Origin: Leucoraja erinacea
Taxonomy: Eukaryota
Assembly (NCBI RefSeq): GCF_028641065.1
Contig: NC_073384.1
Span: forward strand, 16,988,001-17,052,000
DNA: 64,000 nt
Direction of reading: 5' to 3'
Made by a program: the position numbers and the translations under genes. Shown here piece after piece: positions 9,344 through 54,242 of this stretch (the stretch's first letter is position 1; the number at the start of each line of letters is the position of its first letter). The notes under the pieces are model-generated. The model had not been told where the DNA came from. It ran no database searches and saw only the letters and a program-made list of their open reading frames with translations.

Positions 9344-9392
9344 CCACTGCACAGAGGAACAGAGTCAATGTGGAGAATATCAGTGCAGCCAT
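9344..9392 (-). CDS. Leader exon of paralogous gene A: MAALIFSTLTLFLCAV-G
   Basis: Reverse complement reads ATG GCT GCA CTG ATA TTC TCC ACA TTG ACT CTG TTC CTC TGT GCA GTG G|GTAAGT. It differs from the gene B leader at 2 of 16 residues. Confidence 0.8.
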
Positions 9393-9570
9393 GTTGTTAA
9401 ACTTGGTTTGCAAGGATTAGACTTTAGTTCATTCTGACCCGATGTTCCTGTTGCTGTTTTAGAAGTGACTGTGTCATCTTCAACTTCCCCACAAGATTGT
9501 TTTATCACAAATGCGTGGAGTGTAAAGAGGAAGTCATGGGGAAAGTGGGCAGTGGAAACCACTGAAAATT
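9393..9570 (-). promoter_or_regulatory. Putative promoter of gene A
   Basis: AAAGAGGAAGTC at 9524-9535, followed by GGGGAAAGTG and AGTGGAAAC motifs; homologous to the gene B promoter. Confidence 0.5.
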
Positions 9571-10244
9571 TACTCTCAAACTGTAGGCAGATCACCAGAG
9601 TAGTTTTCACCATTCTCTCTGGATGCATTGAATATGGTCACAGATGCAAGTTTTAGATGTTCTGAGGGTCAATCCTTATGGTCACTCCTGATGTTCATAC
9701 ACATTTTTCAGATTCAAATGTTGGAACAAAACCAAATCCTCTGATTAAATTTCGCTTTTTATTAGGAATATTGGGAAGAGCAAGTGACTGAAGTGTAAGT
9801 TGGCGAGCCTTTTGGGACCAGCGACCACAGGTCTATTAGCTTTAAAATAGTTATGGATAACCACAGGGTTGGTCCACTAGTTACAATTCTGAATTGGGGC
9901 AAGGCGACCTTTGGTATCAGATTGGAACTTGCTAAAGTTGCTTAGCATAGGCTTTTACAAGTGTGATGAAAAGTGTTCAGGGTTTGCCTATTCCTGTTGG
10001 AGTGGAAGGCAAAGCAGGTGGGAGTTAGGAAGCTTGGATGAGGAGAGAAGTTGAGGCTGTCAGGAAGAAGGAGGAGGCAAGGCCCAGGTATAGGCAGCAA
10101 AGATTGTGCATCCCTCGAGCGGTTTTGAGAACTGAGGAGCAGGATTAAGAAGGAAATCAGGAGTGAAATAAGGGGACAGGAGACACATCTGGCAGATAAT
10201 ATTAAAGAAAATTGAGTTTAAAGGTTTGAAATAACAAGGCATTG

Positions 10245-10670
10245 CAGTTGCTGGTTTATACCAAAGATAGACACAAAATACTGGAGTAACTCAGTAGGTC
10301 AGGAAGTGTCTGGAAAAAATGGATAGGTGACGTTTCAGATCGGGACCCTTCTTCAGACTGTTTGCAGGGTGGGGGCGAAAAAAAGTAGAAGAGGGGGCTG
10401 GACAATTCACAGCCGGTAACAGATGACCTCAGGCGAGTGGGTTCCCTGATAGGCAGGTTGTTGGAGAGATAGAAGCAGGTTTCAGCCCCAAAGGGAAACA
10501 TGGTTGCGAACAGTTGAAGGACTTTTGTTGTAAGGGGGGAAGGAGTGGGAAGTAAGGGGAGGGGAGAGTGTTAAGAGGGTGGGGGGAGAGAAAGTGGAGA
10601 GGGAAGGAAAGTGTTTGTAGACGTTACCTGAAGTTAGAAGTTAAAGATTTGAAAATTCAGTTGAGTTGAA
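10245..10670 (-). mobile_element. Penelope-derived pseudo-LTR fragment with hammerhead-like core at 10329-10356
   Basis: Minus strand reads CTGAAGA-A-GGGTC-CC-GATCT-GAAAC-GTC; same repeat family as 35185-36060. Confidence 0.65.
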
Positions 10671-12144
10671 ATTTTTGAAGAATTAACCAAAAAGGTTTTT
10701 GAGTGCAAAGGCATAATTGGTGGAGTTAGTTTAGCATTTTTTGTATTTCCTTGGTAAACCAGCATCTGCAGTTGCCGGTTTCTACATATGTCCATATGAA
10801 CTTCAGCATAGGATTTGATTAGGTTCTTCATGGTAAACTGCTCTGGAATTTAGATTATATGAGATCCAGGAAGAGTTAATCAACTGGATAAAAAATTGGC
10901 TTCATGGAAGGCAGCAGAGGGTGATGGTGATGGGTTGTTATCATACTGGAAGTCTATGACTTGTGGTGTGTTCCAGGGATTGGTGCTGTGCCCATTGCTG
11001 TGGTGTTTATATCAGCGATTTGGCTGAGAATGTAGAAGGCATGATTAGTGAGTTTGTAGTGACACTAAAATGGCTGATTTCATAGATAGTGAAGATAATT
11101 AATTTGTTACAGTAAGAATATTGTTAAGCGAGAAAGTGTGCAAAGGAGATGTATAAACATGTTGTCACAACTTGAAGGCCCTAACTATAACAAGAGGTTG
11201 GGCTGGCCAGGACTTTATTCCTTGGAGCCCAGGAGGCCGAGGGATTATTTTATAGAGATTTATAGGATCATGAAGGAGGATAGGTAGTGTGAATGCTCAG
11301 TCTTTTACCCATAGTAGGGGAATCAGGAACCAGAGGACATAGACGAGAGAGGAAAGATTCAATAGAAAACTGAGGGGCAACGTTTTCAAACAGAGGATGG
11401 TGGATATAAGGAATGATCTGACAGAAAAGGTAGTTAAGGCAAGTACAATAACTGCATTTAAAATGCATTTGGTCAGATACATTGATAGGAAAGTTTTAGA
11501 GAGATCTAGGGTAAGTCTGGGCCAGTGGAAGTAGTACAGATGGGACATCTTGTGGTCAACTTGGTAAATTTAGACTTCACTGAAGGACCTATTTCTGTCC
11601 TGTGTAACACTATGACTCGAGTCCAAAAGTACATTAAAGGAAAGAGGGTAACTAGTGAGAGAATAGGTTTCCTCAGACATAAATGTACTCTGCCTCAGAA
11701 TTTTATAAATGTTCCATTAGATTGCCCCTCAGCCTCGGATGCTCTAGAGAAAACAGTCCATATTTATGCAACCTCGCCAGATAACTAATGCCCAGGCAGC
11801 ATTCTAGTAAACATCTTCTACAACGTCTTCAAAGCCGCCACATCATTCCTGTAATGTGGTGACCAGAACTGCACAAACAACTCTGCCCAACCAATGTTTC
11901 ATGCTAGCTGGAACATGACTTGCCAGCTTTTACACTCAATGTCCTGGTCAATGATGCCAAGTATATGGTAGACCTTCTTTACCAGCAGTCAAGAAACCAG
12001 AAATGAACTGCAACAGTGAAACTCTTACTTACTGCAGCTTCCGACACACAGCTACAACAAGAAATAAATGCACTATCAATTATGTTATTCTAAATAAATG
12101 GGGCTATGGCTGTGCAAAGACCCACCAAATTATATGGAGCAATC

Positions 12145-12146
<2 letters not shown>

Positions 12147-12185
<39 letters not shown>
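12147..12185. repeat. (AAT)n microsatellite, tail of a retroelement 3' end
   Basis: Direct inspection; another at about 37951-37973. Confidence 0.9.
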
Positions 12186-15125: not shown

Positions 15126-18100
15126 GCCATAAGTTTGACTTCAGTGCTGGGCAAATTAATGGAAAAGATACTTAGAGATAATATATATATAAGCATCTAG
15201 ATAAACAGGGTCTGAGTAGGAACAGTCAACATGGATTTGTGCCTGGCAGGTCATGTTTGACTAATCTTCTTGAATTTTTTGAAGAAGTTACTAGGGAAAT
15301 TGACGAGGGTAAAGCAGTGGATGTTGTCTATATGGACTTTAGTAAGGCCTTTGACAAGGTTCCTCATGGAAGGTTGGTTAAGAAGGTTCAACTGTTGGGT
15401 ATAAATGCAGGAGTAGCAAGATGGATTCAACAGTGGCTGAATGGGAGAAGCCAGAGGGTAATGGTGGATGGCTTTTTATCGGGTTGGAGGCAGGTGACTA
15501 GTGGGGTGCCTCAGGGATCTGTGTTGGGTCCTTTGTTGTTTGTCATGTACATCAATGATCTGGATGAAGGTGTGGTAAATTGGATTAGAAAGTATGCAGA
15601 TGATACCAAGATAGGGGGTGTTGTGGATAATGAAGAGGATTTCCAAAGTCTACAGAGTGATTTAGGCCATTTGGAAAAATGGGCTGAAAGATGGCATATG
15701 GAGTTTAATGCTGATAAATGTGAGGTGCTACACCTTGGCAGGACAAATCAAAATAGGACGTACATGGTAAATGGTAGGAATTGAAGAATACAGTTGAACA
15801 GAGGGATCTGGGTATAACCGTGCATAGTTCCTTGAAGGTGGAATCTCATATAGATAGGGTGGTAAAGAAAGCTTTTGGTATGCTAGCCTTTATAAATCAG
15901 AGCATTGAGCATAGAAGCGAGGATGTAATGTTAAAATTGTACAAGGCATTGGTGAGACCAAATCTGGAGTATGGTGTACAATTTTGGTCGCCCAATTATA
16001 GGAAGGATGTCAACAAAATAGAGAGAGTACAGAGGAGATTTACTAGAATGTTGCCTGGGTTTCAACAACTAAGTTACAGAGATAGGTTGAATAAGTTAGG
16101 TCTTTATTCTCTGGAGCGCAGAAGGTTAAGGGGGGACTTGATAGAGGTCTTTAAAATGATGAGAGGGATAGACAGAGTTGATGTGGACAAGCTTTTCCCT
16201 TTGAGAATAGGGAAGATTCAAACAAGAGGACATGACTTCAGAATTAAGGGACAGAAGTTTAGGGGAATATGAGGGGGAACTTCTTTAATCAGAGAGTGGT
16301 AGTGGTGTGGAATGAGCTTCCAGTGGAAGTGGTGGAGGCAGGTTCATTGGTATCATTTAAAAATAAATTGGATAGGCATATGGATGAGAAGGGAATGGAG
16401 GGTTATGGTATGAGTGCAGGCAGGTGGGACTAAGGGGAAAAAAAAATGTTCGGCACGGACTTGTAGGGCCGAGATGGCCTGTTTCCGTGCTGTAATTGTT
16501 ATATGGTTATATGGTTATATGGAGTACAAATGTGTTTTAACACTGGATAATAGTCCATAGTGAGGTGCTGAAGTTGGGCTGTACAGGGTGGTTCAAGAAC
16601 TTGATAGTTGATGGGAAGAGCTGTTCTTCAACTTGGAGGGAACAGCCTTCAGGCTCCTGTACCTTCTTCCTGATGGTACAGGGAGATGAGAGTATGGCCA
16701 AGGTGATGTGGGTCTGTTTAAAGGTTGTTTTCTTGGCACCATTTGGCCAGTTGATCGATCTCCCTCCAATACTCTGAGTCATCATCATCCATAATTGGTT
16801 CAACTATGGTGGTGTCGTCGGCAGATTTGAAGATGGAATTGGAACTGTGTCCGGCCACACATTAATGGGTACAGAGTGCGGGGCTGAGCACCCAGCCTTG
16901 AGCTGCTCCTGTGCTGATGGCGATCAAGCTGAAAGTTTTGCTGTGAGGTGGAGGAAATGATTACTGATTAGGGAGAAGTTCACAGTGGCACTTGGAGAGG
17001 ACATACTAGAGGATTAATCCACTGTGGGTAGTTTATTCACAGCGGGTAGAGTTCACAATAAATAAAGGCACGATCATGCTGACGGGATGATATAATGGGC
17101 CCTCCAAAAACCAGCAGGAAATAGAAGAACAAATATATAAACTGATTACAGGAAACTAAAAAACTATCAGAGTTGTCAAAATGAGCGATTTTTTACTTCC
17201 CTAATATTAACTCAGACTTCCTTTGTGCTAGAGGCATAGTTAGGGCAGGGTTTGTTGGATTCAATCCGAAAAGCTTTCTTGAACAGTGTGTGGGTAGTCA
17301 AATTCGAAAAGTGACCATACTGGAAACGTACTGGTATTTGGTCCTAGCCATGCGACTGACATTTATTGCCATCCAATGTACCCAACCTTGACAACCATGT
17401 CCCTCCTCCTGACTGGAACATGCCGGTTTTGAACTCTTGATCATTTGGTCTTTAACAGCCCCCCACATGTCAGATGAACTTACCCAATAACAATAGAGTC
17501 CCGGGGAGCCACACAGGCCTGATCCACCCGCCGAACAACACGCATCCCAGTAGGCCCGACTCGCCCAGGGGCCTGATGTGCACTTGCCTCCCAGGAGACT
17601 GCAGAGAACCCTGGCAGCAAAGCCTGTCTGGGTCAAAGGACCCTGGGCAGCGGCAGCGAGAGCCTGGACGTAGGCGGCGGTTGGGCATCGGTGGTGGTGT
17701 GAGCCTCGGCAGCAACAGGAGCCTTGGCGGTGGTGGCACCTCATGACCGTCCCGCGATCAGCGGTCGATGAGCGTGCAGCAGGGAGGGGAAGACAATGGA
17801 GGACCTGGCGCGGGGGGACTGCCATGAAGAACAATTCGGTCCCGGCGTGGGGGGACCGGTGTGGGGGGGGACCGCCGTGAGGGACGGTGGGAGATCACAG
17901 AGGGACCCGGTGTGGCTGAAGGGGGGAAAATCTAGTTTTAGAATCCTCTGCCCAGGAGATAAACCTGTGTTTGTTTATTTGTTTCTTTGTTCATTCCGGT
18001 TAAGCCACTGTGCACATGGCAGCCAGCCAACAGTCACTTGTCAATTTTTACACTTTTATTTTAATTTAATTTTAATTTCAAGTTTTTGTGTACCTGTTGT

Positions 18101-18368
18101 GTGTTGTGACTGTTGGTAGACCAATTCCCCTCTGGGTATGAATAAAGTTCTATCGTATCGTATCATACAGTGTGGAAACAAGCGCTTCGGCCCAACGTGC
18201 CCACATCAAACAACATGCCCAATCTACACTAATTCCATCTGCCTGCAGTCAAGAGTGTTTTATTCTCTCACATACCAGGTAGAACAATGAAATCCTTACT
18301 TGCAGCAGCACAACAGAATTTGTAAACATAGTCCTCTGTAAAGAATGTGATAAACGAGAAAACAAAAT

Positions 18369-18564
18369 NNNNNNNNNNNNNNNNNNNNNNNNNNNNNNNN
18401 NNNNNNNNNNNNNNNNNNNNNNNNNNNNNNNNNNNNNNNNNNNNNNNNNNNNNNNNNNNNNNNNNNNNNNNNNNNNNNNNNNNNNNNNNNNNNNNNNNNN
18501 NNNNNNNNNNNNNNNNNNNNNNNNNNNNNNNNNNNNNNNNNNNNNNNNNNNNNNNNNNNNNNNN
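18369..18564. other. Assembly gap
   Basis: Run of N. Confidence 1.
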
Positions 18565-19164
18565 AGTGGTCGCAGAGGGAGGAGCAACACCCGAGCGGTA
18601 GGGATAAAACCCAAGCACGGGGCTTGTTTCTTACAGAGGCCCGAGAGCCGAGAGCCATTGGAGCGGTCGCAGAGGGAGGTTTAAACCCAAATCTGCAACG
18701 TTCCAACTTCCCTTCGCATTTCAAAACAAGTGGGCTTGAGGAAGCCGCTGATTAGTGGAAGCAGACAAGAGGGAGCAGCTGATTGGGAGTCAGATCCCTG
18801 CTGATTGTATTGTAGCAGTTTGTATTGCAGTTTGTATTATACTTTGTATTGTATCCTAGTAAGAGGGGAGTATGGTTGCCAGGGCAGTTTACTATTCTGG
18901 ATATCAGATGTGGGAGGTTAAGGAATCTGATAACCTTCCAGACGTCCACATCTGCGCCAGGTGCGTCGAGATGGGGCTCCTAAGGGACCCTATTAGGAAC
19001 CTGGAGCAGCAGCTCGATAACCTCCGTCTGGTCATCGTTCAATATGGGCGGCGCGACTCACGTCGCAGCGGCCTCTGCAGTCCGTCTGTCTTTTTATAAT
19101 TTTTTGTCTTGTTTCAAGTTAGATTTTCTTTTTTTTGACGGGGTATGTGTGTGTGTGTGGGGGA

Positions 19165-19211
<47 letters not shown>

Positions 19212-22200
19212 GAAATCTTTCCCCTGCACGGAGAACCCAAACTTTTCCTTGTCGGGTCTCCGTTGTCGTTGGGGCTGAGCAACGTGGAGCGGCCTCCAGC
19301 AGGAACGACCTAGGGCTGCAATAGCCCATTATCTGTTTATTTGCATTTTATCAGTTTATTTATTCATGTGTGTATATATTTATATAATGGTATATGGTCA
19401 CACTGATCTGTTCTGTATTCATGCTTACTATGTCCTGTTGTGCTGAAGCAAAGCAAGAATGTCATTGTCCTATCAGGGACACATGACAATAAACTCTCTT
19501 GAACCTTGAATCTCTTGAACATGCTCTCGTACATTCCTCATTGTTTTCATTCAGCTATGGATGGTCATGCCTTTAACATGCACCTCTCCTTACCCACTCT
19601 TCCGCCCTCCCCACACTTTCCACCACTCCCCCCTCCCACCCCCTATCCAAGCTCTCTTCCTATCTCCTCCTTTCTTGAAACGTAGTACTCTGATCAAGTG
19701 TTTCACACAAGCATAGAACAGTACAGCGGAGGGAAAGGTTCTATGGCCCACCATATCTGTGTCGAACATGATGCCAATTTAAACTATTCCCACCTGCCTG
19801 CACATGGTCTCACCATTCTCTACTTGTTCATGTATTTGTCTAAATGACTATTAACTACTACTCAGATCTGCCTCCACCACTGCCCCTGGCAATGTTCCTA
19901 AGGCAGGCAAGGCCATTGTAGTGGGAGACTCCATTGTGAGAGGTACGGACAGGGGTTTCTGCGGCAACAGACGGGATGCGAGGATGGTGTGCTACCTTCC
20001 CGGTGCCAGGATCCAGGATGTCACGAACAGAGTGCAGAAAATCCTCAAGGGCAAAGGTGAACATCCGGAAGTGGTAGTGCATGTTGGCACAAACGATGTC
20101 GGAAAGAAGGGGATGAATACTCTGCAGCGTGACTTTAGAGAGCTCGGAAAAATGTTGAAAAGCAGGACCTCCTGGGTTGTTATCTCCGGTTTACTTCCAG
20201 TTCCCCGTGCTGGCGAGAGCAGGAACAGGGAGATACGGGACCTGAACGTGTGGCTGAGGAACTGGTGCACGGGGCAGGGATTTAGATTCTTAGATCACTG
20301 GGATCTGTTTTGGGGTAAGGGGGAACTGTACAAAAGGGACGGATTGCATCTTAACAGGTGTGGGACCAGCATTCTGGCAGGCAGGTTTGCCACTGCTACA
20401 CGGGTGGCTTTAAACTGAATAAGGGGGGTGGGGTGTCGAATGGGATAGTGGAGGATGGAGTTAAAGGGAAAGGGTTTCTTAAATGTGTGCGCGTAGAGAC
20501 CGAGGGGTGTAAATTGAGGGTAGAAGCAATAGGTAGCACGGTGAAAAGTAAAAGTGGCAGGCAGACAAAACCAGGGCAAAAATCAAAAAAGGCCACTTTT
20601 CAACATAATTGTATAAGGGGTAAGGGTGTTGTAAAAACAAGCCTGAAGGCTTTGTGTCTCAATGCAAGGAGCATTCGTAATAAGGTGGATGAGTTGAATG
20701 TGCAGATAGCTATTAATGACTATGATATAGTTGGGATCACGGAGACATGGCTCCAGGGTGACCAAGGCTGGGAGCTGAACATCCAGGGATATCCAATATT
20801 CAGGAGGGATAGAGAGAAAGGAAAAGGAGGTGGGGTAGCGTTACTGATTAGAGAGGAGATTAATGCAATGGAAAGGAAGGACATTAGTTTGGAGGATGTG
20901 GAATCGGTATGGGTAGAGCTGCGAAACACTAAGGGGCAGAAAACGCTGGTGGGTGTTGTGTACAGGCCACCTAATAGTAGTAGTGAAGTTGGAGATGGTA
21001 TCAAACAGGAAATTAGAAATGCGTGCGACAAAGGCAAAACAGTTATAATGGGTGACTTCAATCTACATATAGATTGGCTGAATCAAATTGGCAGGGGTGC
21101 TGAGGAAGAGGATTTCTTGGAATGTATGCGGGATAGTTATCTAAATCAACATGTAGAGGAACCAACGAGAGAGCAGGCTATTCTAGACTGGGTATTGAGT
21201 AATGAGGAAGAGTTAGTTAGCAATCTTGTTGTGCGTGCCCCCTTGGGCAAGAGTGACCATAATATGGTTGAGTTCTTCATTAGGATGGAGAGTGACATTG
21301 TTAATTCAGAAACAATGGTTCTGAACTTAAAGAAAGGTAACTTTGAGGGTATGAGACATGAATTGCCAAGATTGACTGGCAATTAATTCTAAAAGGGTTG
21401 ACGGTGGATATGCAATGGAAGACATTTAAAGACTGCATGGATGAACTACAAAATTGTTCATCCCAGTTTGGCAAAAGAATAAATCAGGGAAGGTAGTACA
21501 TCCGTGGATAACAAGGGAAATCAGGGATAGTATCAAAGCGAAGGATGATGCCTACAAATTAGCCAGAAAAAGCAGCATACCGGAGGACTGGGATAAATTC
21601 AGAGACCAGCAGAGGAGGACAAAGGGCTTAATTAGGAAAGGAAAAAATAGATTATGAAAGAAAACTGGCAGGGAACATAAAAACTGACTGCAAAAGTTTT
21701 TATAGATATGTGAAAACAAAGAGATTAGTTAAAACAAATGTTAGTCCCTTGCAGTCAGAAACGGGTGAGTTGATTGGGTGAAAGGAGTTGGAGGAATTGA
21801 GTGAAATCCAGGTTAGCCGGGAAGTGGTGTTGGGTAAATAGAATGGATTAAAGGCCGATAAATCCCCAGGGCCAGATAGGCTGCATCCCAGAGTACTTAA
21901 GGAAGTAGCTCCAGAAATAGTGGATGCATTAGTAATAATCTTTCAAAACTCTTTAGATTCTGGAGTAGTTCCTGAGGATTGGCGGGTAGCAAATGTAACC
22001 CCACTTTTTAAGAAGGGAGGGAGAGAGAAAACGGGGAATTACAGACCAGTTAGTCTAACATCGGTAGTGGGGAAACGGCTAGAGTCAGTTATTAAAGATT
22101 TGATAGCAGCACATTTGGAAAGTGGTGAAATCATTGGACAAAGTCAGCATGGATTTATGAAAGGTAAATCATGTCTGACGAATCTTATAGAATTTTTCGA

Positions 22201-25290: not shown

Positions 25291-25667
25291 GAAGCAGGAA
25301 TATCTGATACAGACATGCAACAGGCTATCAATCAGCTACAGATATGGGTGGAGAAATGGTGGATGGAAATTAATGGAGATTAATGAAATATAAGGTGTTG
25401 CACTTTGGGAGGTCAAATGCAAGGGGGAAAGTGTACAGTTCATTGCAAGACATTTAATACAATTCCATAGCTCCCTGAAAGTAGCAAACCATTAGATAAA
25501 GAGGTAAATAGGGCGTACGGTATGCTTGCCTTCATTAGTCGGGGCATTGAGTATAAGGTTCAGAAAGTCATGTTGAGGCTTTATGTAACTTTGGTTTGGC
25601 CACATTGGTGCTCCATTACAATAAGGAGGCTTTGGAGAGCTTTGCCAGAATGATGCAAGGATTAGAG

Positions 25668-26945: not shown

Positions 26946-28369
26946 GATTAGAGGGTATTAGCTGTGAGGAGAAGTTGAATAATCTTGAATTCTTTTCCAT
27001 GGAGCGACTGAGGCTCAGCGGCGAACCAACAAAAGTATATAAAATCATGAGAGGCATCGATTGGATGGACAATCAGAACTTCTTCTCACACGAAGATTAG
27101 TTTAAATAGACATCATGTTCAACATGGATATTGTGGCCCAAATGGCCTGTTCCTGTGCTGTACTGTTCTCATGTTCAATGTTGTAATGACTATTTATGGA
27201 AGAGTATTATTGTGGCACTAATCATAAATCAGACAAATTTAGCCTAGTCATTGAAAAGGACAAGAACAAACTATGAAAGAATAATCAAAACGGTGATAAG
27301 CCCCAGATTTACTCAATGGAGAAGAGTCTTAGTAAATGGTAGTCTGCTAAATCACCTGTTAGTCTAAGTGTGAAGGTGACGGATGTGAGAAAGGTTAGAG
27401 TCACTGAAACATACAACACAATTACAGACCCTTCGGTTAACCATCATGTACCCATCCGTACTAATCCTATTTTTCTCACGCATTCCCATCCCCTGTTAAT
27501 GATTCTCCTTCCATTGAACTATACCAGGACAACTTACAGCAGCAAGTTAACTTCTCAACGCAATATCTCTGAGATGTGGAAAGAACCCAGAGTACCCGGC
27601 GAAACTGCAGATGCTGGTTTACACCGAAGACAGACACAAATTGTTGGAGTAACTCAGTGGGTCAGGCAGAAACTATGGAGAAGAGAAATAGGTGATGTTT
27701 TGGGTTGAGATACTTCTTCAAACTGAGAGCGGTCGAGACCGGTCTTCAAATTGAGAAGAAGGGTCTCGACCCAAGCAACCGCCTTGTCTATGCTTGGTCT
27801 CACCAATGTGATAATCATCCCCCGGCGTGGGGTAGCTGAGATTTCCCCCCATTGCAGGAGATTGATTGCTCCAACGAAGAAGGCCAGCCATAAAAAAATG
27901 TTATGGAAAAAAGGTCCACTATAGAAAAAAAGCACACTATAAAAAAAGTTATATATATATATCGTGTTTAATTTCACAGATTCACACCCTTCTGAAAACA
28001 TTTCTTCTCATATCTGTGTGAATGGGCAAATCCTTATTTTTGAACCTGATTTAGGTTTAAAATAAGAACCTTAATCCTTATTTTTTTAAACTTTGATCCT
28101 TGGTCCAAACAACCTACACAGGGGAAATATCAAATTATATTTATTCTACCTGGTCCAAGCGGTCCACACAGCGCTAGGGACCCAGATATGATCCTGAGTA
28201 TGGGTGCTGTCTGTACAGAGTTTATAGCTTCTACCTATGACCTATTTTTTCTCTGGGTGCATTGGCTAATTGGCTTGTTGAAATTGTAAATTGTCCCTAG
28301 TGTGTAGGATAGCGTTAGTGTGCAGGGATCGCTGGTCAGCGCAGTCTCTAAACAAAACTAAATACAATA

Positions 28370-29120
28370 ATAATACAATACAATACAATTGATTTGTCAC
28401 TTGAACCTCATAGAGGCTCAAGTGAAATGTTGTTTCTGCAGTCATACATACAAGAAAAAAAAAGACCCAAGACACAACACAATTTACACAGACATCCATC
28501 ACAGCGCATCTCCTCCTCGCTGTGATGGAAGGCAAAAAAACGTATCTCTCCCCTGCACTTCCCTCTCCCCCCGATGCCAGTCAAAGTCAGAGCCCAAGTC
28601 AGAGCCCCCGGCGGGCGACAACAATTGTCCCGCGGCCATTAACGCCGCGCCAGGTGGTGCAAGGCCGCGCTCCGGGTCTTGTTGTTGGAGAATAGAATAG
28701 AATAGTTTCTTTATTGTCATTGTAACATGAGCCATGTACAACGAAATCTAAACGAGCCATGTACAACGAGCCCAGGGCGGGTGCTAGCAAAGTCACGCAG
28801 CCGTTGAAGCCACGCCGGGCGATGATGTAAGGCCCCGCTCCAGGTCATCCTCGACCCCGCTACTCGGGCGGGTGAAGTCGCCGTTGCGGAAGCTCCGAAA
28901 AGCGGTCTCCCAACAGGGACCCGCGGGCTCCCGGTGTTATTGTCTACCAGACCTGCTTTACAGATTTAAAAAGTTTCCCCCCCCCCCCCCCCGCCCCCCA
29001 GCAGCACACACACACACATACACATACCCCATCAAAAAAATAAAAACTACATTAAAACGGGACAAAAAAATAACAGACTGCAGAGGCCGCTGCGACGTGA
29101 GTCGCGCCGCCCACCGGAAG
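28370..29120 (-). mobile_element. GC-rich retroposon copies including the apparent 5' end (CTTCCGGTGGGCGGCGCGACTCACGTCGCAGCGGCCTCTGCAG)
   Basis: The same 5' motif occurs on + at about 19044; tails at about 28370 and 28690. Confidence 0.6.
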
Positions 29121-29559
29121 CCCATCAAAATATTTGGCAGATTTCAAAGGGATCACATTATATGCAATTTAGAAGCATAGACTTAATTAATTTAATCTTC
29201 CTTTTCGTATGACAACCCGTCCCCATCATCTCAGGAAACATTGTGGTCAACCTGTGACCACGGAGACCACACTTGTAAAATCCTGCCATATAATCACATA
29301 GTAATGGTTTGGATTTGAATGGATTTGGTATGATTAATATGTTTGAAGGTGACACCATAATTAGTGGTAGAATAAACAGTGAAGAAGGTCATCTAACATT
29401 ACAACAGGATCCAAGTCAACTGGGAAAGTGGACGAAGGAATGGTAGATGGAATGGCGAAGTGTTGCATTTTGAGAAGTTAAACTAAAGCTTTGCTACAGT
29501 AAATCTTTTCTACACTCCCTCCAAAGCCTCCACATTCCTTCCTATGCTGAGGCTTTGCG

Positions 29560-30135
29560 GGTCCAAGATGTGCTTTCCCAGGCTCACATGCTGCTTCCTG
29601 TCTGTCAGGAAGTTGGTGATCCACCGACAGAAGGGTTCAGGCACAGTCAACTCGGAAAGCTAGTAGTAGCTCTGGCACAATGGTGTTGAATGCAGAGCTA
29701 AAATCAACAAACAAACTCCTCACAAACTCCTGGTGATTAGGTGCTGGAGGATGAAGTGCAGGCCCAGTTTGACTGCGACATCCACAGATCTATTGGCCCG
29801 ATATGTATACTGCAGTGGGTCCAGCAGGGGGTTTGTGATATTTTTCAGCTTGACTACAGTGTGACAGACCTGTAGTCATTAAGACCAGTAATCCTTGCCT
29901 TTTTGGCTACAGGGACAATAGTGGAGACTTTGAAGCAGGCAGGGACAGTACAGGTTTGCAGGGACTGTTTGAAAATGTCTGTGAAGACCGGTGCCAGTTG
30001 TTCGGCACAGAGCTTGAGAGTAGAGGGGGAAACATTGTCTGGTCCTGGAGATTGTCGGCTTTTCTGTCTTCTGAATAGCCTCTCCAACGCCTCTATTTTT
30101 ATTGTTGATGATGGAGAAGTGATGTTGTGCAGCAC
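29560..30135 (-). mobile_element. Rex/Babar LINE RT fragment
   Basis: [43 protein letters not shown]. Confidence 0.8.
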
Positions 30136-30864
30136 GGAGGGTGTCTAGTCGTGTATTGTCATCTGCATGCTTACAGTGATGTATAGATACGCTGATCCTC
30201 CTCTTTATACTTTGCAATGAATCCAATTCCATTTCTTAGCCCTGCCTTTCAGGGTCCTACATCTTCCCCTCATTACTATCCCTTCAGGCAGATTCACTGT
30301 TCATCTCAGGGGATAAGTCTGGTGGACCATAATCACCCTCAGGCTGCTTCAATCCTCAATGACCTGATGATTTGAGCACTTATCTCTCCTACTCTCACTC
30401 CCTCTTATCTCTCTTTTTCTCTCTCTCTTTCTCTCTCTTTCTCTCTCACTTTCTCTCTTGTTACATTAATTGTTTCATTATTGTTAAGTAACTCTGCATG
30501 TGTAAAACACCCGCTCCTCAATGGGAGATCATCTTCTTGCTGGTGTTATGAGTATTCTATGGTTGTATTTGGTTAGAATGAGTTCAGTAAGTTGCTCTGA
30601 ACCATCCCTCGTTCTGCTGACAAGACCTGGAATGGCTGAACGTTGCTGAAGGCTGATGTCCCTTTGGAAATCTGTGCCTGGCCAGTTGGACTGAAGGAAT
30701 CTTACATTCAGTCAAGCTAAAGAGGAATCAATGAAACATTAAACCGTAAAACTGAGAGGCAACAACAAGTCTCATCATAACAAATAACAGACTGAGATTT
30801 TAATGAAATTATTAGTTTGCATTTATTGGATCATCACTAAATGATTGAGCTGTGCAAAGGGATT

Positions 30865-30867
<3 letters not shown>

Positions 30868-30933
<66 letters not shown>

Positions 30934-31495
30934 TATTTTATTGTCATTGCACATAAGTGCAACGAGATTTGGTATGCAGCTTCCATCCGATGTCATAACT
31001 AATACAATTTAGATTTAGATACCCCGAGAACATGGTTTGTAAAAAGAACATTACAACAGTAAATAGTCAAAACAGTTCAAACAGACTAAAGTGCAGATGT
31101 GTCTGTGCGACATGACCATCTGAGGGAGACAGTCCGTGGGGGTGGGGGGCACTCAGCAGACTCAGTAGTTCAGAGCCGCTATAGCTCTGGGAATAAAGCT
31201 GTTCCTGAGTCTGGAGGTACGGGCGTAGAAGGCCTTGTAACGTCTGCCGGAGGGAAGTAGTTCGAACAGTCCATTACAAGAGTGTGAGGAGTCTTTATGG
31301 ATGCTGACAGTCTTCCTGAGGCACCGTGTGTAGTAGATGCCCTCCAAGGCTGGTAGCAGTGTCCCAATAATCTTCTGCGCTCTGTGGACGACGCGCTGAA
31401 GAGCTCTCCTCTCCGCCTCCGTGCAGCTGAGATACCACACAGAGATGCCATATGTTAATATGCTCTCTGTGGTGCAGTGGTAGAAGGTGTGACAG
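30868..31495 (-). mobile_element. Rex/Babar LINE 3' end with (TTA)n tail
   Basis: FYHCTTESILTYGISVWY..LLPSGRRY..RLRNSFIPRAI (DUF1891-type C-terminus); (AAT)n at about 30868-30933. Confidence 0.85.
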
Positions 31496-31549
31496 CAGTT
31501 ACTGTTGGGGCAGACCAGTGGATGGACTTTTTTTGGGCCCATGTTCTTA

Positions 31550-31581
<32 letters not shown>

Positions 31582-32497
31582 ATGGGGTAAAACCTGGCAA
31601 GGGGGTAATGGGGGGGGGCCTTTGTATAGTTTAGGGGAAAGAATAAAGAGGCCCTTCGGCTCACTAGTAAATAGCGAAGTGAATTGTGCTAATATGTTGA
31701 CAGTGAACCACAGACAAAGCCTAACGTTAAAGACATGAAATGCAGCAGTGACACCATCCAAGTTTCAGGAATTTCACTGAATATGTTATAGCGTGCACCC
31801 ATCATTGCAACAGAAAATTGGATCTATTATCAATTAATTAGACTTGTGGATAATCATTTTATTCTGCAATCAAGACCTAGTTTTTTACCTGATTCAGTAT
31901 TTCTGTCATCTCCATTCTGTAATCAAGTTTCTGTGTAACTTTGTCAGCTGAGAATATAAAATTGTGCCAAAGTCATGCTCAGGAGATGAGTTTGACTTGT
32001 CTCCTTGTCCCACCGGTTTGACTTTGAACGTCAACTCCGTGTGGCCTTTCCATTTGCTCCTACGGTGTTCTTGATAGCGAGGAAGGTTGTATATGATTAT
32101 AGCAGGATAGAGATTAAATGAAATGTTGGACAGGGTATTGGCAGATGGAAATTAATTCAGGCAAGTGCAAGATGATACATTTTGGAAAGTCAAATACGTG
32201 TCGGACAAAAGCAGTAAATGACAGGGCACTAAAAATTGTTGATGAACAAAGAACAAAGAAACCAAAGGTTTCAAGTCCATTGTTACTTGAAAATGCCACC
32301 ACACTTGGTTAGGATGGTTGAAGAAAGCATGCAGCATCCTTGCCTTCCTAGATCAGTGCACTGATTATAATTGTTGGAAGATTATGTTTCAACTTTTACA
32401 AACATCGGTAAGGCTACATCTGGAGTACCAGGTGTAATTCTGGTCACCACATTATAGGAAGGATGTGATTATGCTGGAAAGTGTGCAGAGAAGGACA

Positions 32498-32808
32498 GCA
32501 CGGTGGCACAGTGGTGGAATTGTTGCTTTACAGCATGTGGAGACCTGGTTTCAATGTCGACTACGGGTGCTGTCTGTACGAAGTTTGTGTGTTCTCCCTG
32601 TGACCGCGTGGTGTTTCTCCGAGATCTTCGGTTTCCTCCCACATTCCAAAGTCGTACAGGTATGTGGATAAATTGGCTTGGTTTAAGTGTAAATTGCCCC
32701 TAGTGTGTGTAGGATAGTGTTAATGTGTGGTGATCGCTGGTCTGTGCAGACCCGGTGGGCCGAGAGGCCTGTTTCCACGCTGTATCTCTAAACTAAACTA
32801 AACTAAAC
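32498..32808 (+). mobile_element. HE1/V-SINE (tRNA-derived)
   Basis: A-box-like TGGCACAGTGG, B-box-like GGTTTCAATG, V-domain GGTTTCCTCCCACATTCCAAAG, CR1-like 3' end and (TAAAC)n tail. Similar copies at about 28160-28360, 34450-34740 and 40655-40860 (+), and 8620-8830, 47905-48425 and 61533-61838 (-). Confidence 0.8.
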
Positions 32809-33654
32809 TGAGGAAGATTTACTGTGATTAGAGGACTTTAGTTAAAGATGATTGAATATGATTGATTGAATTGATTTAATTACACAGCAGGGAAACAGGC
32901 CCTTTGGCCCACCACGTCCATGCTGACAATCGATCACACCTTCACACTAGTTCTATGCAATCCCATTTTCTCATCCATCATTTACACACTGGGAGGCAAT
33001 TTAGAGAGGACAATTAAACTACAAACCCGCACATCTTTGGGATGTTGGAGGAATCCGGAGCACCCAGAGGAAATTTACTCTCCCAAGTTGCTGACTAAAA
33101 AAGTTAGAATTTGCAGTACCCCAATTTAGTACCTTGCCCCACGGTCCAGACTTATCTTTATTCATAACTATTTTAAAACTTATGATCTTTGTTCCTAAAA
33201 TGCTCTCCCACTGCGATCCATCCAAATCACCTGGCCAGGATAATTCCACAGGACAAGTTCCAGTATGGTCACACCTCAAGTTGGACACACACTGTTTCAA
33301 GAAACCCTCTTGGATTGCACCTAACAAACACTGCCCCATCTAAGCCTCTAGCCTCCAGCACTAAGGAAGTCTGAATCAATGTTGGGGAAGTTAAAATCAC
33401 GCACAATGACAACCATGTTGATTTTACAGTATGTAAAACTTTCCGCATTTGTTGTATTGTTGGCAGTTTTGATTGCTTCATTACTGAAAATATGTGGAGG
33501 CTTTGAACAGAATGCAGACATGGTCACCAGAATACTGCCTGGAGTTTAAGGGTCAGCCATGATCATATTGAATGGCCGAATGGCCTACTCCTGCACCTAT
33601 TTTCTATGTTTCTATGTTTCTATGGTATTACCAACAAGGAATGTTTGTAAAGGA

Positions 33655-33861
33655 AGGTACCCAAAAGTGCTGGAGAAACTCAGCGGGTACAGCAGCATCT
33701 ATGGAGCGAAGGAAATAGGTGACATTTCGGGCTGAAACCCATCTTCAGCCCGAAACGTCGCCTATTTCCTTCGGTCCATAGATGCTGCTGCACCCGCTGA
33801 GTTTCTCCAGCATTTTTGTGAACCTTTGATCTACCAGCATCTGCAGTTCCTTCTTGAACAC
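33655..33861. mobile_element. Fold-back Penelope-derived element with 14-bp TSD
   Basis: Arms of about 74 bp (33662-33735 and 33744-33818), flanked by ATGTTTGTAAAGGA at 33641-33654 and 33862-33875. Confidence 0.85.
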
Positions 33862-35184
33862 ATGTTTGTAAAGGATGTGGCAGGTAATTCCATTACCACC
33901 AATCACAGAGACCGGGCACATTTCTGGACCAATGCCAATGAGTCTGCCCGGGCCTGCTCACCCACAGAATGCCTAAATCGGCCAATAGCCTAAATCGGCC
34001 AATAACTGGTGTAAATATTCCACTGATTGGTGCTGATATTCCACTGGATGTTGCAGGATGTTGCAGCTATGTAGCTCTGACCTTTAACACACCAGGATCC
34101 ACATTGTTGCATTCTTTAGCTAAGGTTGAGGATCAGATCAGCAGAACAAATCGATTCACGGACAGTGTCACAGATTTATGCAGCACAGACACATGCCTCC
34201 AAACCTGCTCCCTATACATTTCCCCCCTGGATCCCATCCCTTATCTGATTCCATCTACCCTTTCCCTCTCCCTCGTCACCTTCCTTACTGATCAAATTGT
34301 AGTCTTTGTCCCCCTAATTATCACCCTCCCGCCTTTGTCTTCACCTTCACCTCTCCCACCAGAGTCCAGTTTCCCCATCATCCTGTCCTTGGTACATCTA
34401 ATACCTATGACCCCTGTCTTGCGCCTTCTCTTCTCTTCTGATGTGAGAGACGGAGGCGCGGCAGTAGAGTTGCTGCCGTACAGCGCCAGAGACCAGGGCG
34501 CAATCCCGACTAGGGGTGCTTGTCTGTATGGAATCTGTATGTTTTTCCTGTGACCTGCAGATTTACCCCAGTTGTTCCGGTTTCCTCCCACACCCCAAAG
34601 ACGTACAGGTTTATAGGTTAATTGGCATCTGTGAAAATTGTTCATTGTCCCTAGTGTGTAGTATAGTGCTAAAGTGTACTAGGATTGCTGGTCGGTGAGC
34701 TGAAGGGCTTGTTACTACGCTGTATCTCTAAACTAAACTAAGAAGATGAACTAAGAGATGGATTTGAAATTCAAACCGTAACTTCCTCCAGCACACTTTG
34801 TTTCTATGCCCTTTATATTTGTAAAGCCTTTCCTCCTAGGTTTATATTTCCCATTTTTATCACAAAGCTACACATGGAGTCACAATGCTCTATATGTCGT
34901 TCCGTTCCTCTACCGCATTTCTTGGTTCAATGCCACATAAACATGCTTCTACTCTCCTGGTGTGTAATACCTGCATGCTTTCAATAACCACAGTCTTACT
35001 TCCTCACACTGAGGGCTCGCTGGCAACCGCATGCAGTTCCTCTCAGCCCAAAGTCCATAACCTCTGTCGAGTGGGTGACTGTCAAATTCCCTTTGAACAG
35101 TTCAACCATCTCCACACTTGCCACCATGGACCAAAATGTGAATATCCTGCACATTCATCCGCTGTCATACAAAGCATGGGACCA

Positions 35185-36060
35185 CGAGAGACTGCAGATG
35201 GTGGAATCGTGAACAGAAAACAAAGTGCTGGAGGAACTCAGTTGGTCAGGCAACATCTGTGGAGGTAAATGAACAGACGACATTTCAGGTCGGGACCTTT
35301 CTTCAGACTGATGGAGTAGGGGGAGAAGAGACGTTGGGATGGGGCACATCCTGGCAAGTGATAGCTGAGGAGATCTGATATGAGGACATGACTTCAGAAT
35401 TAAGGGACAGAAGTTTAGGGGTAATATGAGGGGGAACTTCTTTACGCAGAGAGTGGTGACGATGTGGAATGAGCTCCCAGTGGAAGTGGTGGAGGCAGGT
35501 TCATTGGTATCATTTAAAAATAAATTGGATAGGCATATGGATGAGAAGGGAATGGAGGGTTATGGTACGAGTGCAGGCAGGTGGGACTAAGGGGAAAAAA
35601 ATTTGTTCGGCATGGACTTGTAGGGCCGAGATGGCCTGTTTCCGTGCTGTAATGGTTATATGGTTATATGATATGCAGATGGGTGGAGTAAATGACAAAG
35701 GCCAGAGGTGAAATAAGACAAAGTGTGTCACATAAGGAAACAGTAGGAGTGAAATGTTAAGACCGAGGTGGGAAAAAGTGTGGCCACTGGGAATAGGGTG
35801 AGGAGAGGAAGGTTTGAGGACCTTTTTCTTTTAATTGGCAAATTATAGGATTAGGTAGAAGGCTACCAACGCAGAAAATCAGATACTGTTCATCAAGTTT
35901 GATTGTGGCCTCTCTTTAGCAGCAGAAGAAGCCAAAAACAGAAAGGTCGGTATGGGATGGGGAAGGAGAGTTAAGATAACTAACGGGGAGCTCCAGCAGA
36001 CCTTGGAGCGCAAGTGTTCAGGGAAATGGTCGCCTGGTCTATGCTTGCTCACCCCTCATG
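35185..36060 (-). mobile_element. 5'-truncated Penelope element: GIY-YIG endonuclease remnant plus pseudo-LTR, split by a CR1 3' end (35384-35670)
   Basis: Minus strand 36045-35850 reads KHRPGDHFPEHLRS..ELPVSYLNSPSPSHTDLSVFGF..EATIKLDEQYLIFCVGSLLPN; hammerhead-like core at 35279-35306. Confidence 0.8.
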
Positions 36061-36591
36061 CAGAAGATGCTTCATCAGGACTATGACACGTATTGGCATC
36101 AGGCACGTACAACTCATATGGTTCATGGTGACTCGCTTTCCCAGTAGGTTCCCCTCCCCCACACTAGGAGGATCTCCTGATTAATTGTCCACTAACTCTG
36201 TCCTCATTTGGTCACAATAGCTTCTCACCCTCATTCTTCATCTACTTCCACAGCCCAGTAACATTGTGGATAGGTCAGTAGAGTGATATCCAGAGAGTTG
36301 AGCCATTCATCCCGAGACATGTATATTAATATGCACATGGGGGATGTTAACTTGAGGTATATAACGATAATAAATAACATGAACCTGAAATTTAAATGTA
36401 AAGGTTGGTATCAATGTTTGTAATTAGGAAAATACTGGGTTGTTATAAAAACCCACCCATGTGCCCCAGGGAAGATCTGCCACCCAGACCATGCTCGGTC
36501 TCTGTATGGCTCCAGTCCCAGCAACATGCTGGTTCTTCGAGAGAGGGATGAACTGCCTGAAGGGATAATTATAAGGGGAAGATGTAGGACC

Positions 36592-36965
36592 CTTATAGAA
36601 ACTTACAAAATTCTTAAGGGGTTGGACAGGCTAGATGCAGGAAGATGGTTCAGAACAAGGGATCACAGTTTAAGGATAAGGGGGAAATCTTTCAGGACCG
36701 AGATGAGGAAAAACGTTTTTCACACAGAGAGTGGTGAATCTCTGGAATTCTCTGCCACAGAAGGTAGTTGAGGCCAGTTTATTGGCTATATTTAAGAGGG
36801 TTAGATGTGGCCCTTGTGGCTAAAGGGATCAGGGGGTATGGAGAGAAGGCAGGTACAGGACACTGAGTTGGATGATCAGCCATGATCATATTGAATGGCG
36901 GTGCAGGCTCGAAGGGCCGAATGGCCTACTCCTGCACCTATTTTCTATGTTCCTATGTTTCTATG
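36592..36965 (+). mobile_element. CR1 3' fragment
   Basis: LIETYKILKGLDRLDAG plus 3'UTR and tail. Confidence 0.85.
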
Positions 36966-37528
36966 ACCCTGAAAAGCAGGCCTAAGAAATGGAATTGCAT
37001 TAATAATGAAGTATAAGGAGGAGGTTCGCTGTACCTGTACATCACCGTACATCTGCAGATATACAATACACTCGACTTGACCTGAGGCAGAGAACATGAG
37101 CCAAGATTTACACCCAGGCAATACTCCCCTGGGAGGGGGACAGGTGGTGGAAAAGCTTCAGTGGAAAAGCAATGATATGCTCAGAGCTGAGGATGTGCTG
37201 GTGGCAAGGGATGTATGTGAATGAGAGAGAAAAGTGGATGTGGCTGCAGAGACACAAAATACTGGAGTACCTCCAGCATCTATGGCTGTGCCCTCATCAA
37301 CCTTTTTGGTCACTTCTTCAAAAAGCTCAGATTTCATAGAAACATAGAAACATAGAAAATAGGTGCAGGAGTAGGACATTCGGCAATTGGAGCTTTTCAA
37401 CTCAACTCAATTATCAATTATTTAACTACTTTAGCTAACACCTACAAACACCTTCCTTCCACTTCCTTTTCTCTCTCCCCTCACTCTCTCCCCTTGCTTT
37501 ACCCCTCCTCCACTCCCTTCACCTGAAT

Positions 37529-37736
37529 ATGTAGGAAGGAACTGCAGATGCTGGTTTTCACCGAAGATGGACACAAAATGCTGGGGTAACTCAGCAGGAC
37601 AGGCAGCATCTCTGGATAGAAGGAATGGGTGACATTTCAGGTCGACACCATTCCTCGCTCTCGACCCGAAACGTCACCATTCCTTCTATCCGGAGGTGCT
37701 GCCTGGCCCGCTGAGTTACTCCAGCATTGTGTCTGT
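37529..37736. mobile_element. Fold-back Penelope-derived element with 16-bp TSD
   Basis: Internal inverted repeat, flanked by CTCCCTTCACCTGAAT at 37513-37528 and 37737-37752. Confidence 0.85.
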
Positions 37737-39499
37737 CTCCCTTCACCTGAATCCTGGCTAACCTTGCACCAGTTTCTTTCCCCCACCCCTTCCAGCAATA
37801 GTCTATATCAAATGGTCTTCATTAAAAACTAGCTTTACAGAAGCAGTTGTGATCCCAACGGTTATACATAGTTGCAAACTATCTCCCGCATTTATCCAGC
37901 AATCTCCCTATCAGGGAACCCCCTCCTCCGATTTGTTACCGCCGTGATTTAATAATAATAATAATAATAATAATGCATTTTATTTATGGGCGCCTTGCTG
38001 GACACCTTACAGTTAAGTCAAGTTTACAGACAAGTTACAAGTTTGCAACAAATTACAGTATTCGGAGAGAGAGCAGCGGCAGCTATTCGCGCCAGCGTTC
38101 ACTCTCATTTCCGGCAGCCACTTCACAATTTCTCATTTGCAGCACACCAATAAAAATAAGGCACAACACCAAAGAAGAATTTAACACCAAACATAAAACA
38201 TCCCCCCGCAATGTTTCCCACTGTGAGGGAAGGCAACAAAGTCCAGTCCTCATCCTCTTGTTCACCCCGTGCTCGGGGCCTATTTGAGGCCTCCGCAGTC
38301 GCCGCATGTACCAGGCCCTCTCGCCGGATGGATGATGGATGATGGATGATGGATGATGGATGATGGCCGTTCCAGAGTGTTTGGAACGGCCGCTTGCTGC
38401 CAGAGACCGCGGTCCTGAAGTCCACAGGCCGCGCTGGTCAGAGCTCCAACACTGGCGATCTCGGCGACAGATCCCAAGCTCCACGGCAACCATACTCGAT
38501 GGCGCCCTCACTCACTCCAACCCTTCTTATCTCTTCCACTTTTCTTGTGCTCCCCTCTGCAGTCAGTCTGAAGAAGGGTCCTGTCCCGAAATGTCACCTA
38601 TCCATTTTCTCCAGTGCTGCTGTTGATTTACTCCATTATTTGGTGTCTGTCTTTGGTACAAGCCAGCATCTGAAGTTCCTTGTTATTTCAAATCATTAAA
38701 CTCAATTTTATTTTATATTATCTGCCAGAGCTATCCCCTGCCCCCTTGTTGCCCTCCTGATTTCCATTTTAATCCTGCCCCTCAGTTCTCAAAACCCCTC
38801 CAGGGGTGCACGAGCCCAAGGCCCTTGCCTCCTCCTTCTTCCTGACAGCCTCAATTTCTCTCCTCATCCAAGCTTCCTTACTCCCACCTGCCTTGCCTTT
38901 CACTCCAACAGGAATATGCAAACATTGAATTCTCGTCATCACACTTTTAAAAGCCTATTCTAAACAACTTTAGCAAGTTCCTGTCTGATACTAAAGTTCA
39001 CCTTGACCCAATTCAGATGGGCCCTATCTTTTTTTAACTATTTTAAAGATAGAACCTGTGTTCGCTTGTTCCAAAATCCTCACCTACTGAGTCAGTCAAT
39101 CAATTTTATTTGTATAGCACATTTAAAAACAACTCATGTTGACCAAAGTGCTGTACATCAGTGCAGATACTAATGTGCTACATACAATGGTACACTGACC
39201 TAACAATACATACATAAACTGTTTACAGCGCCCCCTCAGAGGGCCTCAAAAACACTAGGGAGTCACTTGCCCTTCCCAATTTCCCAAAATACTGGAGTAA
39301 ATTTTCCCAATGAAGAGAAAAATTAATCAGAGAATTAGTTTTTGTTTCCACATTTGAATCTGAAAAATGTGCATGAACATCATGGGTGACCATGAGGATT
39401 TGCCCTCGGTTTGTCTAAAACCTGCCTCTGTGACCATCGTCGATGCATTCAGAGAGAATGGTGAAAACTACTCTGGTGATCTGCCTACAGTTTGAGAGA

Positions 39500-39677
39500 G
39501 TATTTTCAGTAGTTTCCACTGCTCACTTTGCCCATGACTTCCTCTTTACATTGCACACATTATGATGAAACAATCTTGTTGGGAAGTTGAAGATGACACA
39601 GTCACTTCTAAAACAGCAACGGGAACATCGGGTCTGAATGAACTAAAGTCTAATCCTTGCAAACCAAGTTTAACAAC
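39500..39677 (+). promoter_or_regulatory. Putative promoter of gene B with PU.1/Spi site and IRF-like half sites
   Basis: GACTTCCTCTTT (= AAAGAGGAAGTC) at 39536-39547 and AGTTTCCACT at 39511-39520. No TATA box or octamer is evident. The PU.1 site is retained in gene A. Confidence 0.5.
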
Positions 39678-39726
39678 ATGTTTGCACTGATATTCTCCAC
39701 CTTGACTCTGTCCCTCTGTGCAGTGG
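39678..39726 (+). CDS. Leader (signal peptide) exon of IgSF V-J gene B: MFALIFSTLTLSLCAV-G
   Basis: aacaacATG start with A at -3, 16 hydrophobic codons plus 1 nt, then a canonical G|GTAAGT donor. Phase 1 matches the V exon acceptor at 52119. A paralogous copy lies at 9344-9392. Confidence 0.85.
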
Positions 39727-39917
39727 GTAAGTACAGTCCCAGGATGGGTGGCCCAGTCTGGGTTAGTTTAATCTGCTTTCAAGTTCAATTTACATATTGC
39801 AGTGATGTTTATCTAAGATTTTACAGTTGAATATTTCTGTTTAAAATTGAGATGTTTTGTGTTCTTGGTTGCCTGTGAGAAGGACACTGAAGTGTACTGC
39901 TCTGGAGTTCCTAGCAT

Positions 39918-54180: not shown

Positions 54181-54242
54181 GTCAATTTTATAGAGACAGA
54201 CATCATTAGTTCACTAAGAAAGGATTCATACAATGTATGGAA

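Follow-up and report, generated by a model that had tools for sequence, protein, structure and literature searches.

Back-to-back V-J receptor genes of the little skate as a probable inhibitory/activating pair in a cartilaginous-fish gene cluster

Two related leader exons lie back to back in a 64,000-nucleotide stretch of little skate (Leucoraja erinacea) DNA, C8:16988001-17052000, where C8 stands for contig NC_073384.1. What are the two genes behind them, A and B, to each other, and how did they come to point apart? A preliminary description of this stretch, called the window throughout, took them for a pair of paralogs from a small duplicated receptor family, created by an inverted duplication and possibly acting as a co-regulated heterodimer or a paired activating/inhibitory set. 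We hold with good confidence that A and B are neighbours in a cartilaginous-fish cluster of non-rearranging receptors built from several V-J (variable-joining) domains, and that they likely form an inhibitory/activating leukocyte pair, in which A carries immunoreceptor tyrosine-based inhibitory and switch motifs (ITIM and ITSM) and B its own activation motif (ITAM). Positions marked "win" use window numbering, extended rightwards beyond the window end.

Two leaders and the receptors behind them

The leaders are intact and face apart as first described, with 30,286 bp between their ATGs; each begins with ATG, encodes 16 hydrophobic residues and ends at a phase-1 GTAAGT donor. Self-BLASTN of the window recovers seven collinear inverted pieces, about 3,100 columns at 73-91% identity, which is beyond chance. 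They span 5.3 kb on the A side, enlarged by insertions, and 4.0 kb on the B side (Table 1), so the figure of roughly 5.5 kb first given for the inverted copy suits A's span only. The A-side region is also common to three paralogs, Z, C and D, and a genome search with the leader region gives five matches, which all fall within 280 kb of C8; B alone is on the plus strand, the other four being on the minus strand. Each of the two promoters contains a putative box, seen by eye, that resembles what we take to be the ETS/PU.1 consensus.

Gene A had been predicted to continue left of position 1, with a minus-strand V-J exon flanked by phase-1 splice sites. Such an exon is found 14.2-14.6 kb left of the window, at C8:16973761-16973411 on the minus strand, with phase-1 AG/GT sites. 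Beyond it lie five more V-J exons, a transmembrane (TM) exon and three cytoplasmic exons with an ITIM and an ITSM (ILYADI and TEYAAI), extending to C8:16948328. Spliced together, the leader, six V-J exons, TM exon and three tail exons give an open frame of 827 amino acids (aa) with one terminal stop.

Gene B has its leader and a single-exon V-J domain, D1, inside the window. To the right of the window it continues with a frameshifted D2 (C8:17053658-17054003), D2' and a TM exon; next comes a cytoplasmic exon that carries a YxN motif, and two small ITAM exons bring the gene to C8:17063111. The ITAM, YxxL-x7-YxxI, is divided between exons of 24 nt and 57 nt by a phase-0 intron after Y-x, and C, D and E have the 24-nt exon as well; the motifs are defined, and the split in phase 0 is described, as in the available text of a CEACAM paper, PMC5112662. 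Among named proteins, D1 comes nearest to uncharacterised models from skates, rays and sharks, at best 88% with one from little skate. Matches in PDB are antibody V domains, and the ESM Atlas returns an unnamed V-set cluster, possibly the protein's own, together with generic ITIM receptors.

A map drawn from 464 kb of C8 sequence bears out the idea of a duplicated receptor family and extends it well beyond two genes. Seven units, Z, A, B, C, X, D and E, follow one another from left to right, with five related leaders in 340 kb (Table 1). Every V exon of the cluster contains its J motif, with the donor directly after it. Among the 464 kb there are 21 loose matches to recombination signal sequences (RSS), none at any V exon end; the split V and J segments with RSS that define a rearranging antigen receptor are absent from the cluster. 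Gene C (C8:17087400-17111849) corresponds to a public little-skate model, P0014, which equals its two V exons at 99-100% identity; P0014 reads through the donor and is without the TM and ITAM exons, and the thorny-skate model P0009 likewise ends after the TM.

Table 1. Features in window numbering, followed by the seven units of the cluster from left to right
Feature	Position	Strand	Remarks
Inverted homology, A side: promoter, leader, proximal intron 1	5088..10393	-	self-BLASTN
Leader exon of gene A (likely inhibitory member)	9344..9392	-	49 nt, phase-1 donor
ETS/PU.1-like box in promoter A	9524..9534	+	putative, read by eye; equal box at 39537-39547, other strand, in promoter B
Ordinary intergenic spacer blocks	16566..23791	+	collinear with, and on the same strand as, spacers upstream of Z and D
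Interval with left junction of inverted B unit	23792..38530		repeat-rich, no cluster homology found
Inverted homology, B side	38531..42532	+	self-BLASTN
Leader exon of gene B (likely activating member)	39678..39726	+	49 nt, phase-1 donor
B exon D1: single-exon V-J domain, V-set, germline FGxG	52119..52469	+	351 nt, phase 1-1
Degenerate J-end remnant with donor site	54240..54276	+	separated from D1 by a piece of long interspersed element (LINE), 52538-54191
Unit Z			leader, four V-J exons, TM, inhibitory tail (ITIM+ITSM)
Unit A			leader, six V-J exons, tail like that of Z
Unit B			inverted, ITAM tail
Unit C			leader, two V-J, TM, ITAM
Unit X			broken TM and tail remnant
Unit D			leader, no D1 found, two V-J, one interrupted V-J, stop within the ITAM exon
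Unit E			divergent leader, one V-J, V remnant, TM, ITAM

Paired receptors combine similar ectodomains on clustered genes with opposite tails. Both are found here: the first V-J exons of A and B are 92.9% identical and D2-type exons 93-99%, and comparison of TM and tail exons sets A and Z, with ITIM and ITSM, against B, C and E, with an ITAM. The second of the two functions first proposed, a paired activating/inhibitory set, is thus supported. By analogy with known paired receptors, the distal D1 would bind ligand; A, bound to a self ligand, would recruit SH2 phosphatases and so inhibit leukocytes, and B, C and E, once a pathogen mimic binds, would activate them by firing Syk/ZAP-70-type kinases without an adaptor. 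Pathogen pressure would diversify D1, and the back-to-back layout may ease gene conversion between A and B.

Several observations weigh against this reading. No transcript of A or B was seen in four RNA runs, in which almost only repeat reads fell on B's 3' half and no reads shown crossed an exon joint of B; about 16 reads near B's TM acceptor, all from one run, have letters that differ from B, and one further RNA run gave no reads for D1. Contigs from three related organisms do span the D1 exon exactly, running into D2 in all three and into the leader in one, at 90-92% identity where full length, and so show splicing of some family member; these are other organisms, with tissue and run type not on record. 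The ratio of nonsynonymous to synonymous change (pN/pS), 1.87 for D1, 0.53 for D2 and 0.86 for D3, is pooled, without a formal test, from six pairs that are not independent and differ by 0-6 synonymous changes, and it is by eye that changes in D1 cluster in loops like the complementarity-determining regions. The closest inhibitory/activating pair of D1 exons is Z-C (98%, no synonymous difference), with A-B at 93%; Z and C are on the same strand, so inversion is not required for homogenisation. The neighbours D and X are broken, and B itself, with D2 included, has one extra base and a stop at residue 165.

Given that stop, B may be decaying. That it is already a pseudogene or decoy, leaving full receptors to A, Z, C and E only, we consider rather unlikely. 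The extra base, the broken neighbours and the RNA runs speak for it, but all other exons and splice sites of B are intact, and D2, a phase 1-1 exon, can be skipped in frame to leave an open protein of 344 aa. P0009, the thorny-skate model nearest to B, begins with the same leader and keeps the order D1-D2-D2'-TM intact. The additional base falls in a run of C, which it lengthens, and errors of that kind are typical of long reads. B likely makes protein by D2 skipping only, barring an assembly error or a rare allele as the source of the additional base.

The J-end remnant behind D1 of B has a counterpart in gene E, where a similar V remnant follows D1. A contig from a related organism joins 52529 straight to sequence resembling that past the LINE, so this insertion seems to be absent there.

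Origin and distribution of the V-J family

The family, more than the inversion, is the point of this locus; it is conserved across a class. A profile search at E<=1e-20 returned 119 proteins, all from cartilaginous fish, 117 of them family-like and two light chains. Among 122 family protein identifiers from 22 shark and ray species, isoforms counted, 26 have an ITAM and 48 an ITIM+ITSM-like tail, and both tail types occur in 13 of the 22 species. Five further domains, from elephant shark, came out of a search of 1.84 billion representatives, and the three that were placed in the tree all fell within the family clade; among the 22 of 150 listed matches that were read (names of 20 proteins), those from bony vertebrates are immunoglobulin (Ig), T-cell receptor (TCR) or NITR-like V arrays.

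Family members are annotated merely as "uncharacterized" or under misleading automatic names, and the skate models end before the ITAM exons. Full-text paper searches, with most subscription journals and supplements outside their coverage, found no earlier description; the family is apparently undescribed and class-wide in cartilaginous fish, and a prior description may exist. Ohta et al. 2019 reportedly surveyed V-J genes of the Ig superfamily. To our knowledge, few natural killer or myeloid paired receptors have been described in cartilaginous fish, and for work on the leukocytes of sharks and skates the family supplies markers, along with a stop/go system that can be put to the test.

About 400 kb to the left of the cluster, at C8:16476458-16483724 (L078, L018, L028), is an outlying family member. 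A divergent V-J exon is followed there by a D2-type V fused to a long Asn/Gly-rich repeat, in one open frame of 853 aa. A bamboo-shark protein, P0115, has a similar layout, and the outlying member is possibly a secreted or mucin-like form.

When skate V exons were scored with the family profile, the best matches from outside the family were germline-joined light chains (90-107 bits); lambda-type exons scored 51-77, sigma 49, Ig heavy chain (IgH) 38-53, TCR 19-45 and NCR3-like 38-46. In the best-scoring group, one exon matches a named light chain of type I at 92% identity. Type I is sigma-2, which, in the available text of PMC5192425 and PMC2192082, is always joined in skate. Mean identity of family V domains to sigma-2 is 34-45%, highest for D2 at 45%; D2 shares 18-30% with all other V groups. 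Family and sigma-2 form one clade in three trees, with support of 91/95 (51 rows), 92/94 (63 rows) and 99/94 (61 rows), the family being sister to sigma-2 or nested within it (99/94); labels of V groups other than sigma-2 are ones we take to be correct. Six long or redundant rows had been dropped before the 63-row tree was built, in which a long NITR-like I-domain row fell among sigma-2; for the 61-row tree two long rows were removed. Skate kappa, UrIg and bony-fish sigma-2 are absent from the trees.

Against descent from a light chain stand the approximately unbiased (AU) tests. With the family kept outside, monophyly of Ig light chains (p 0.17, 0.28), of Ig (p 0.29) and of antigen receptors (p 0.19) was not rejected. 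Because none of the alternatives is rejected, a light-chain origin is likely but unproven: the V-J exon probably descends from, or is sister to, the V of the sigma-2 light chain.

In the search for a V-J ancestor that preceded RAG, single-exon V-J genes that are intact usually count as relics. The AU tests permit a position outside all antigen receptors, and the union of V and J in one exon, the lack of an RSS next to the V exons and the presence of the family in elephant shark, sharks and rays would fit a relic of a non-rearranging V-J receptor from before the RAG invasion, not a light-chain derivative. We nevertheless think this improbable. The three trees group the family with a single light-chain isotype, within the Ig radiation; D2 is closer to sigma-2 (45%) than sigma-2 is to lambda (35%); none of the 119 profile matches falls outside cartilaginous fish; and no C1 domain was found on C8 among the 150 scored of 220 C1-set candidates.

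The history that we propose in place of a relic has, in our judgement, about an even chance of being right. Before the chimaera split, a germline-joined sigma-2 V-J exon, a product of RAG in germ cells, would have been captured by exons for ITIM and ITAM tails, founding an innate paired-receptor family in which the inverted B is an old activating member, back to back with the inhibitory block. Most like one light-chain isotype, the family may illustrate the opposite route, in which an antibody gene became an innate receptor. If the capture took place, an antibody domain of the adaptive system was turned back into an innate sensor.

Elsewhere in the genome, germline joining is seen in an IgH V-D-J exon at C31:192144-192467 (L108) and in lambda-type V-J clusters on C25. 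Such IgH and lambda-type exons are known for skates.

The back-to-back layout

Divergent orientation and promoter-leader regions of 91% identity, with the light-chain FGxG motif kept in D1, could mean that A and B are co-regulated chains of one heterodimer under a shared head-to-head control region, the other function first proposed. Each gene, however, has its own promoter, some 29 kb from the other's, and that promoter is also found in tandem paralogs. The domains of A and B have no extra extracellular cysteine, such as a stalk cysteine, and neither TM has a charged residue. D2 is without the J phenylalanine, and in D3 an N-glycan sequon adjoins the second cysteine, positions that we presume to lie on the V-V pairing face; chain lengths are also unequal, with six V domains against two. 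Judged from the sequences, an A-B heterodimer is unlikely, and one governed by shared control very unlikely indeed. The inverted layout is not a bidirectional promoter, and it is ordinary for immune gene clusters.

Nor do A and B look like sister copies from one recent inverted duplication of A's promoter end, a history to which we give very little credence. The inverted homology is adjacent, an upstream block of 0.4-0.6 kb in B is common to A and Z and absent from C and D, and in a 547-column leader alignment the commonest shared-site pattern is AB, with six sites against five for AZ and weak tree support (64-74). In the same alignment, however, A-B identity (91.4%) is no higher than A-Z (92.5%), A-D (92.3%) or C-D (93.8%). 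Collinear chains in 21-kb windows reach 7.9 kb at 91% for A-Z and 7.5 kb at 91% for C-D, and 3.9 kb at 83% for A-B. All four pairs with B are at 82-85% and the six pairs without it at 90-91%; each of the other genes has B as its least similar partner, and A's closest copy is its tandem neighbour Z. B's TM and tail type is also unlike A's, its TM exon being 93-96% identical to those of C, D and E. On these alignments A and B appear not to be sisters, and B appears to be the most diverged of the five leaders; the claim that the inversion made the two a pair does not hold.

The spacers suggest what did happen. Win 16.6-23.7 kb and win 81.4-98.4 kb align, collinearly and without a change of strand, with the spacer from the D promoter to the last exon of E, and the B unit (win 38.5-78.8 kb, about 40 kb) lies inverted between these two stretches. 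Three spacer blocks searched genome-wide gave full-length matches in the cluster only. B is therefore a single inverted unit within one otherwise ordinary spacer, between the end of gene C and the promoter of A, and the arrangement reads as an ordinary spacer interrupted by an old inverted activating gene. The 3' flank of the B unit itself is only 68-75% identical to the others. Of the duplication first proposed, then, one part stands: B looks like an inverted duplicate set into the array. It may have come in late, from a diverged copy, or may be an old core that later duplicates have lost. Most probably the back-to-back layout arose incidentally, when an activating gene was long ago duplicated in inverted orientation, and the inversion stands where the inhibitory half of the cluster meets the activating half.

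An inversion in place predicts inverted promoter-side spacer blocks upstream of B. A masked search at word size 7 found none there, and a deletion could hide them. The interval win 19911-21277, considered as a paralogous 3' flank that would prove a flip of B in place, was dropped as a young interspersed repeat, with at least 39 other copies at 98% identity (4533 candidates).

B's exons resemble those of its paralogs (D1 93-94%, D2 94-98%) more than most adjoining intron pieces do (84-92%), and the 3' flank of D1 is at 97%. Exons more alike than introns are suggestive of gene conversion between A and B, and no more than suggestive.

An assembly artefact, which the N run 18369-18564 between the leaders might bring to mind, is scarcely credible, because spacer homology flanks that run on both sides and keeps strand and order across it, no N separates B from the oppositely oriented C, and the copies, 73-91% identical with differing insertions, are not haplotypes.

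Other features of the window include a degenerate tandem repeat in A's intron 1, beside an N run (6439-7598); an element with short terminal inverted ends, likely a DNA transposon, that is also found 2-5 kb upstream of leader Z (44997-47725); and a degraded retroelement-like stretch with inverted internal copies, related copies of which occur elsewhere in the cluster (57250-63800). In the flanks of the cluster, among 150 of 1921 candidate open reading frames scanned, are stathmin, PAQR, DUF4772, nicotinic acetylcholine receptor (nAChR), B7/butyrophilin-like, IIGP and TRIM domains. Pfam matches at C8:16.64-16.86 Mb and 17.23 Mb are to TRIM RING/B-box, stathmin, PAQR, PAG (weakly), DUF4772 and a ligand-gated channel subunit. 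The flanks resemble what we take to be the STMN/CHRNA/ZNF395 paralogon, a resemblance only. Two B7/butyrophilin-like V+C genes, whose V domains are without the second cysteine, lie 150-250 kb to the right (C8:17368752-17375221 and 17465885-17471593; L129, L130, L139), with an IIGP-type GTPase and a TRIM gene near them; by proximity only, the two are candidate ligands.

Comparison with known receptor systems

Hagfish APAR, teleost NILT and skate MDIR/CD300 are paired receptors with V domains, NILT having both ITAM and ITIM forms. No named APAR, NILT, MDIR or CD300 member occurs among the family matches, in a comparison without any named NILT, MDIR or APAR sequence; skate V domains that we take to be CD300/pIgR-like score 3-15 bits on the family profile.

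NITRs have an extra-cysteine I domain and activate through a charged TM residue, whereas the skate family has no I domain and has its own ITAM. Two V rows from one teleost protein, which from its motifs we take to be NITR-like, fall outside the family clade (100/98). What the NITRs of ray-finned fish share with the family, in the available text of PMC7916673, is a clustered, non-rearranging arrangement, V-J continuity, both signal forms and birth-and-death turnover.

UrIg/UrIg2 and NCR3 (NKp30) of cartilaginous fish, in the available text of PMC12227049, are likewise non-rearranging single-exon V-J genes of elasmobranchs; UrIg differs in having one V-J with many C domains and linkage to the major histocompatibility or antigen-receptor complex. 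The skate cluster is without C domains and lies on C8. The NCR3-like skate genes are on C13 and score well below sigma-2 on the family profile, as given above.

Sigma-2 (also sigma-cart, type I or NS5) is the closest V relative and, in the available text of PMC5192425 and PMC2192082, shares a germline-joined single V-J after a split leader. Its layout is one V-J and one C1 with no TM. The family differs in its tandem V-J domains, TM and signalling tails, its lack of C1, a shorter CDR3-like loop and a separate locus. The sigma-2 loci of this genome are on contigs with high numbers, which appear to be unplaced.

In signalling architecture, the family matches the CEACAM paired receptors. Human CEACAM1 and CEACAM3 and the Xenopus ceacams, in the available text of PMC5112662, have a distal V common to ITIM/ITSM receptors and receptors with their own ITAM, an ITAM split by a phase-0 intron, a YxN motif, inhibitory and activating genes in opposite orientation, which is linked there to gene conversion, and fast nonsynonymous change in the distal domain. 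They differ in combining one V-like N domain with IgC-like domains and in lying between lipe and bcl3. The skate family, by contrast, is V-set only and has other flanks: all of its one to six domains are antigen-receptor-type V-J exons with the canonical disulfide.

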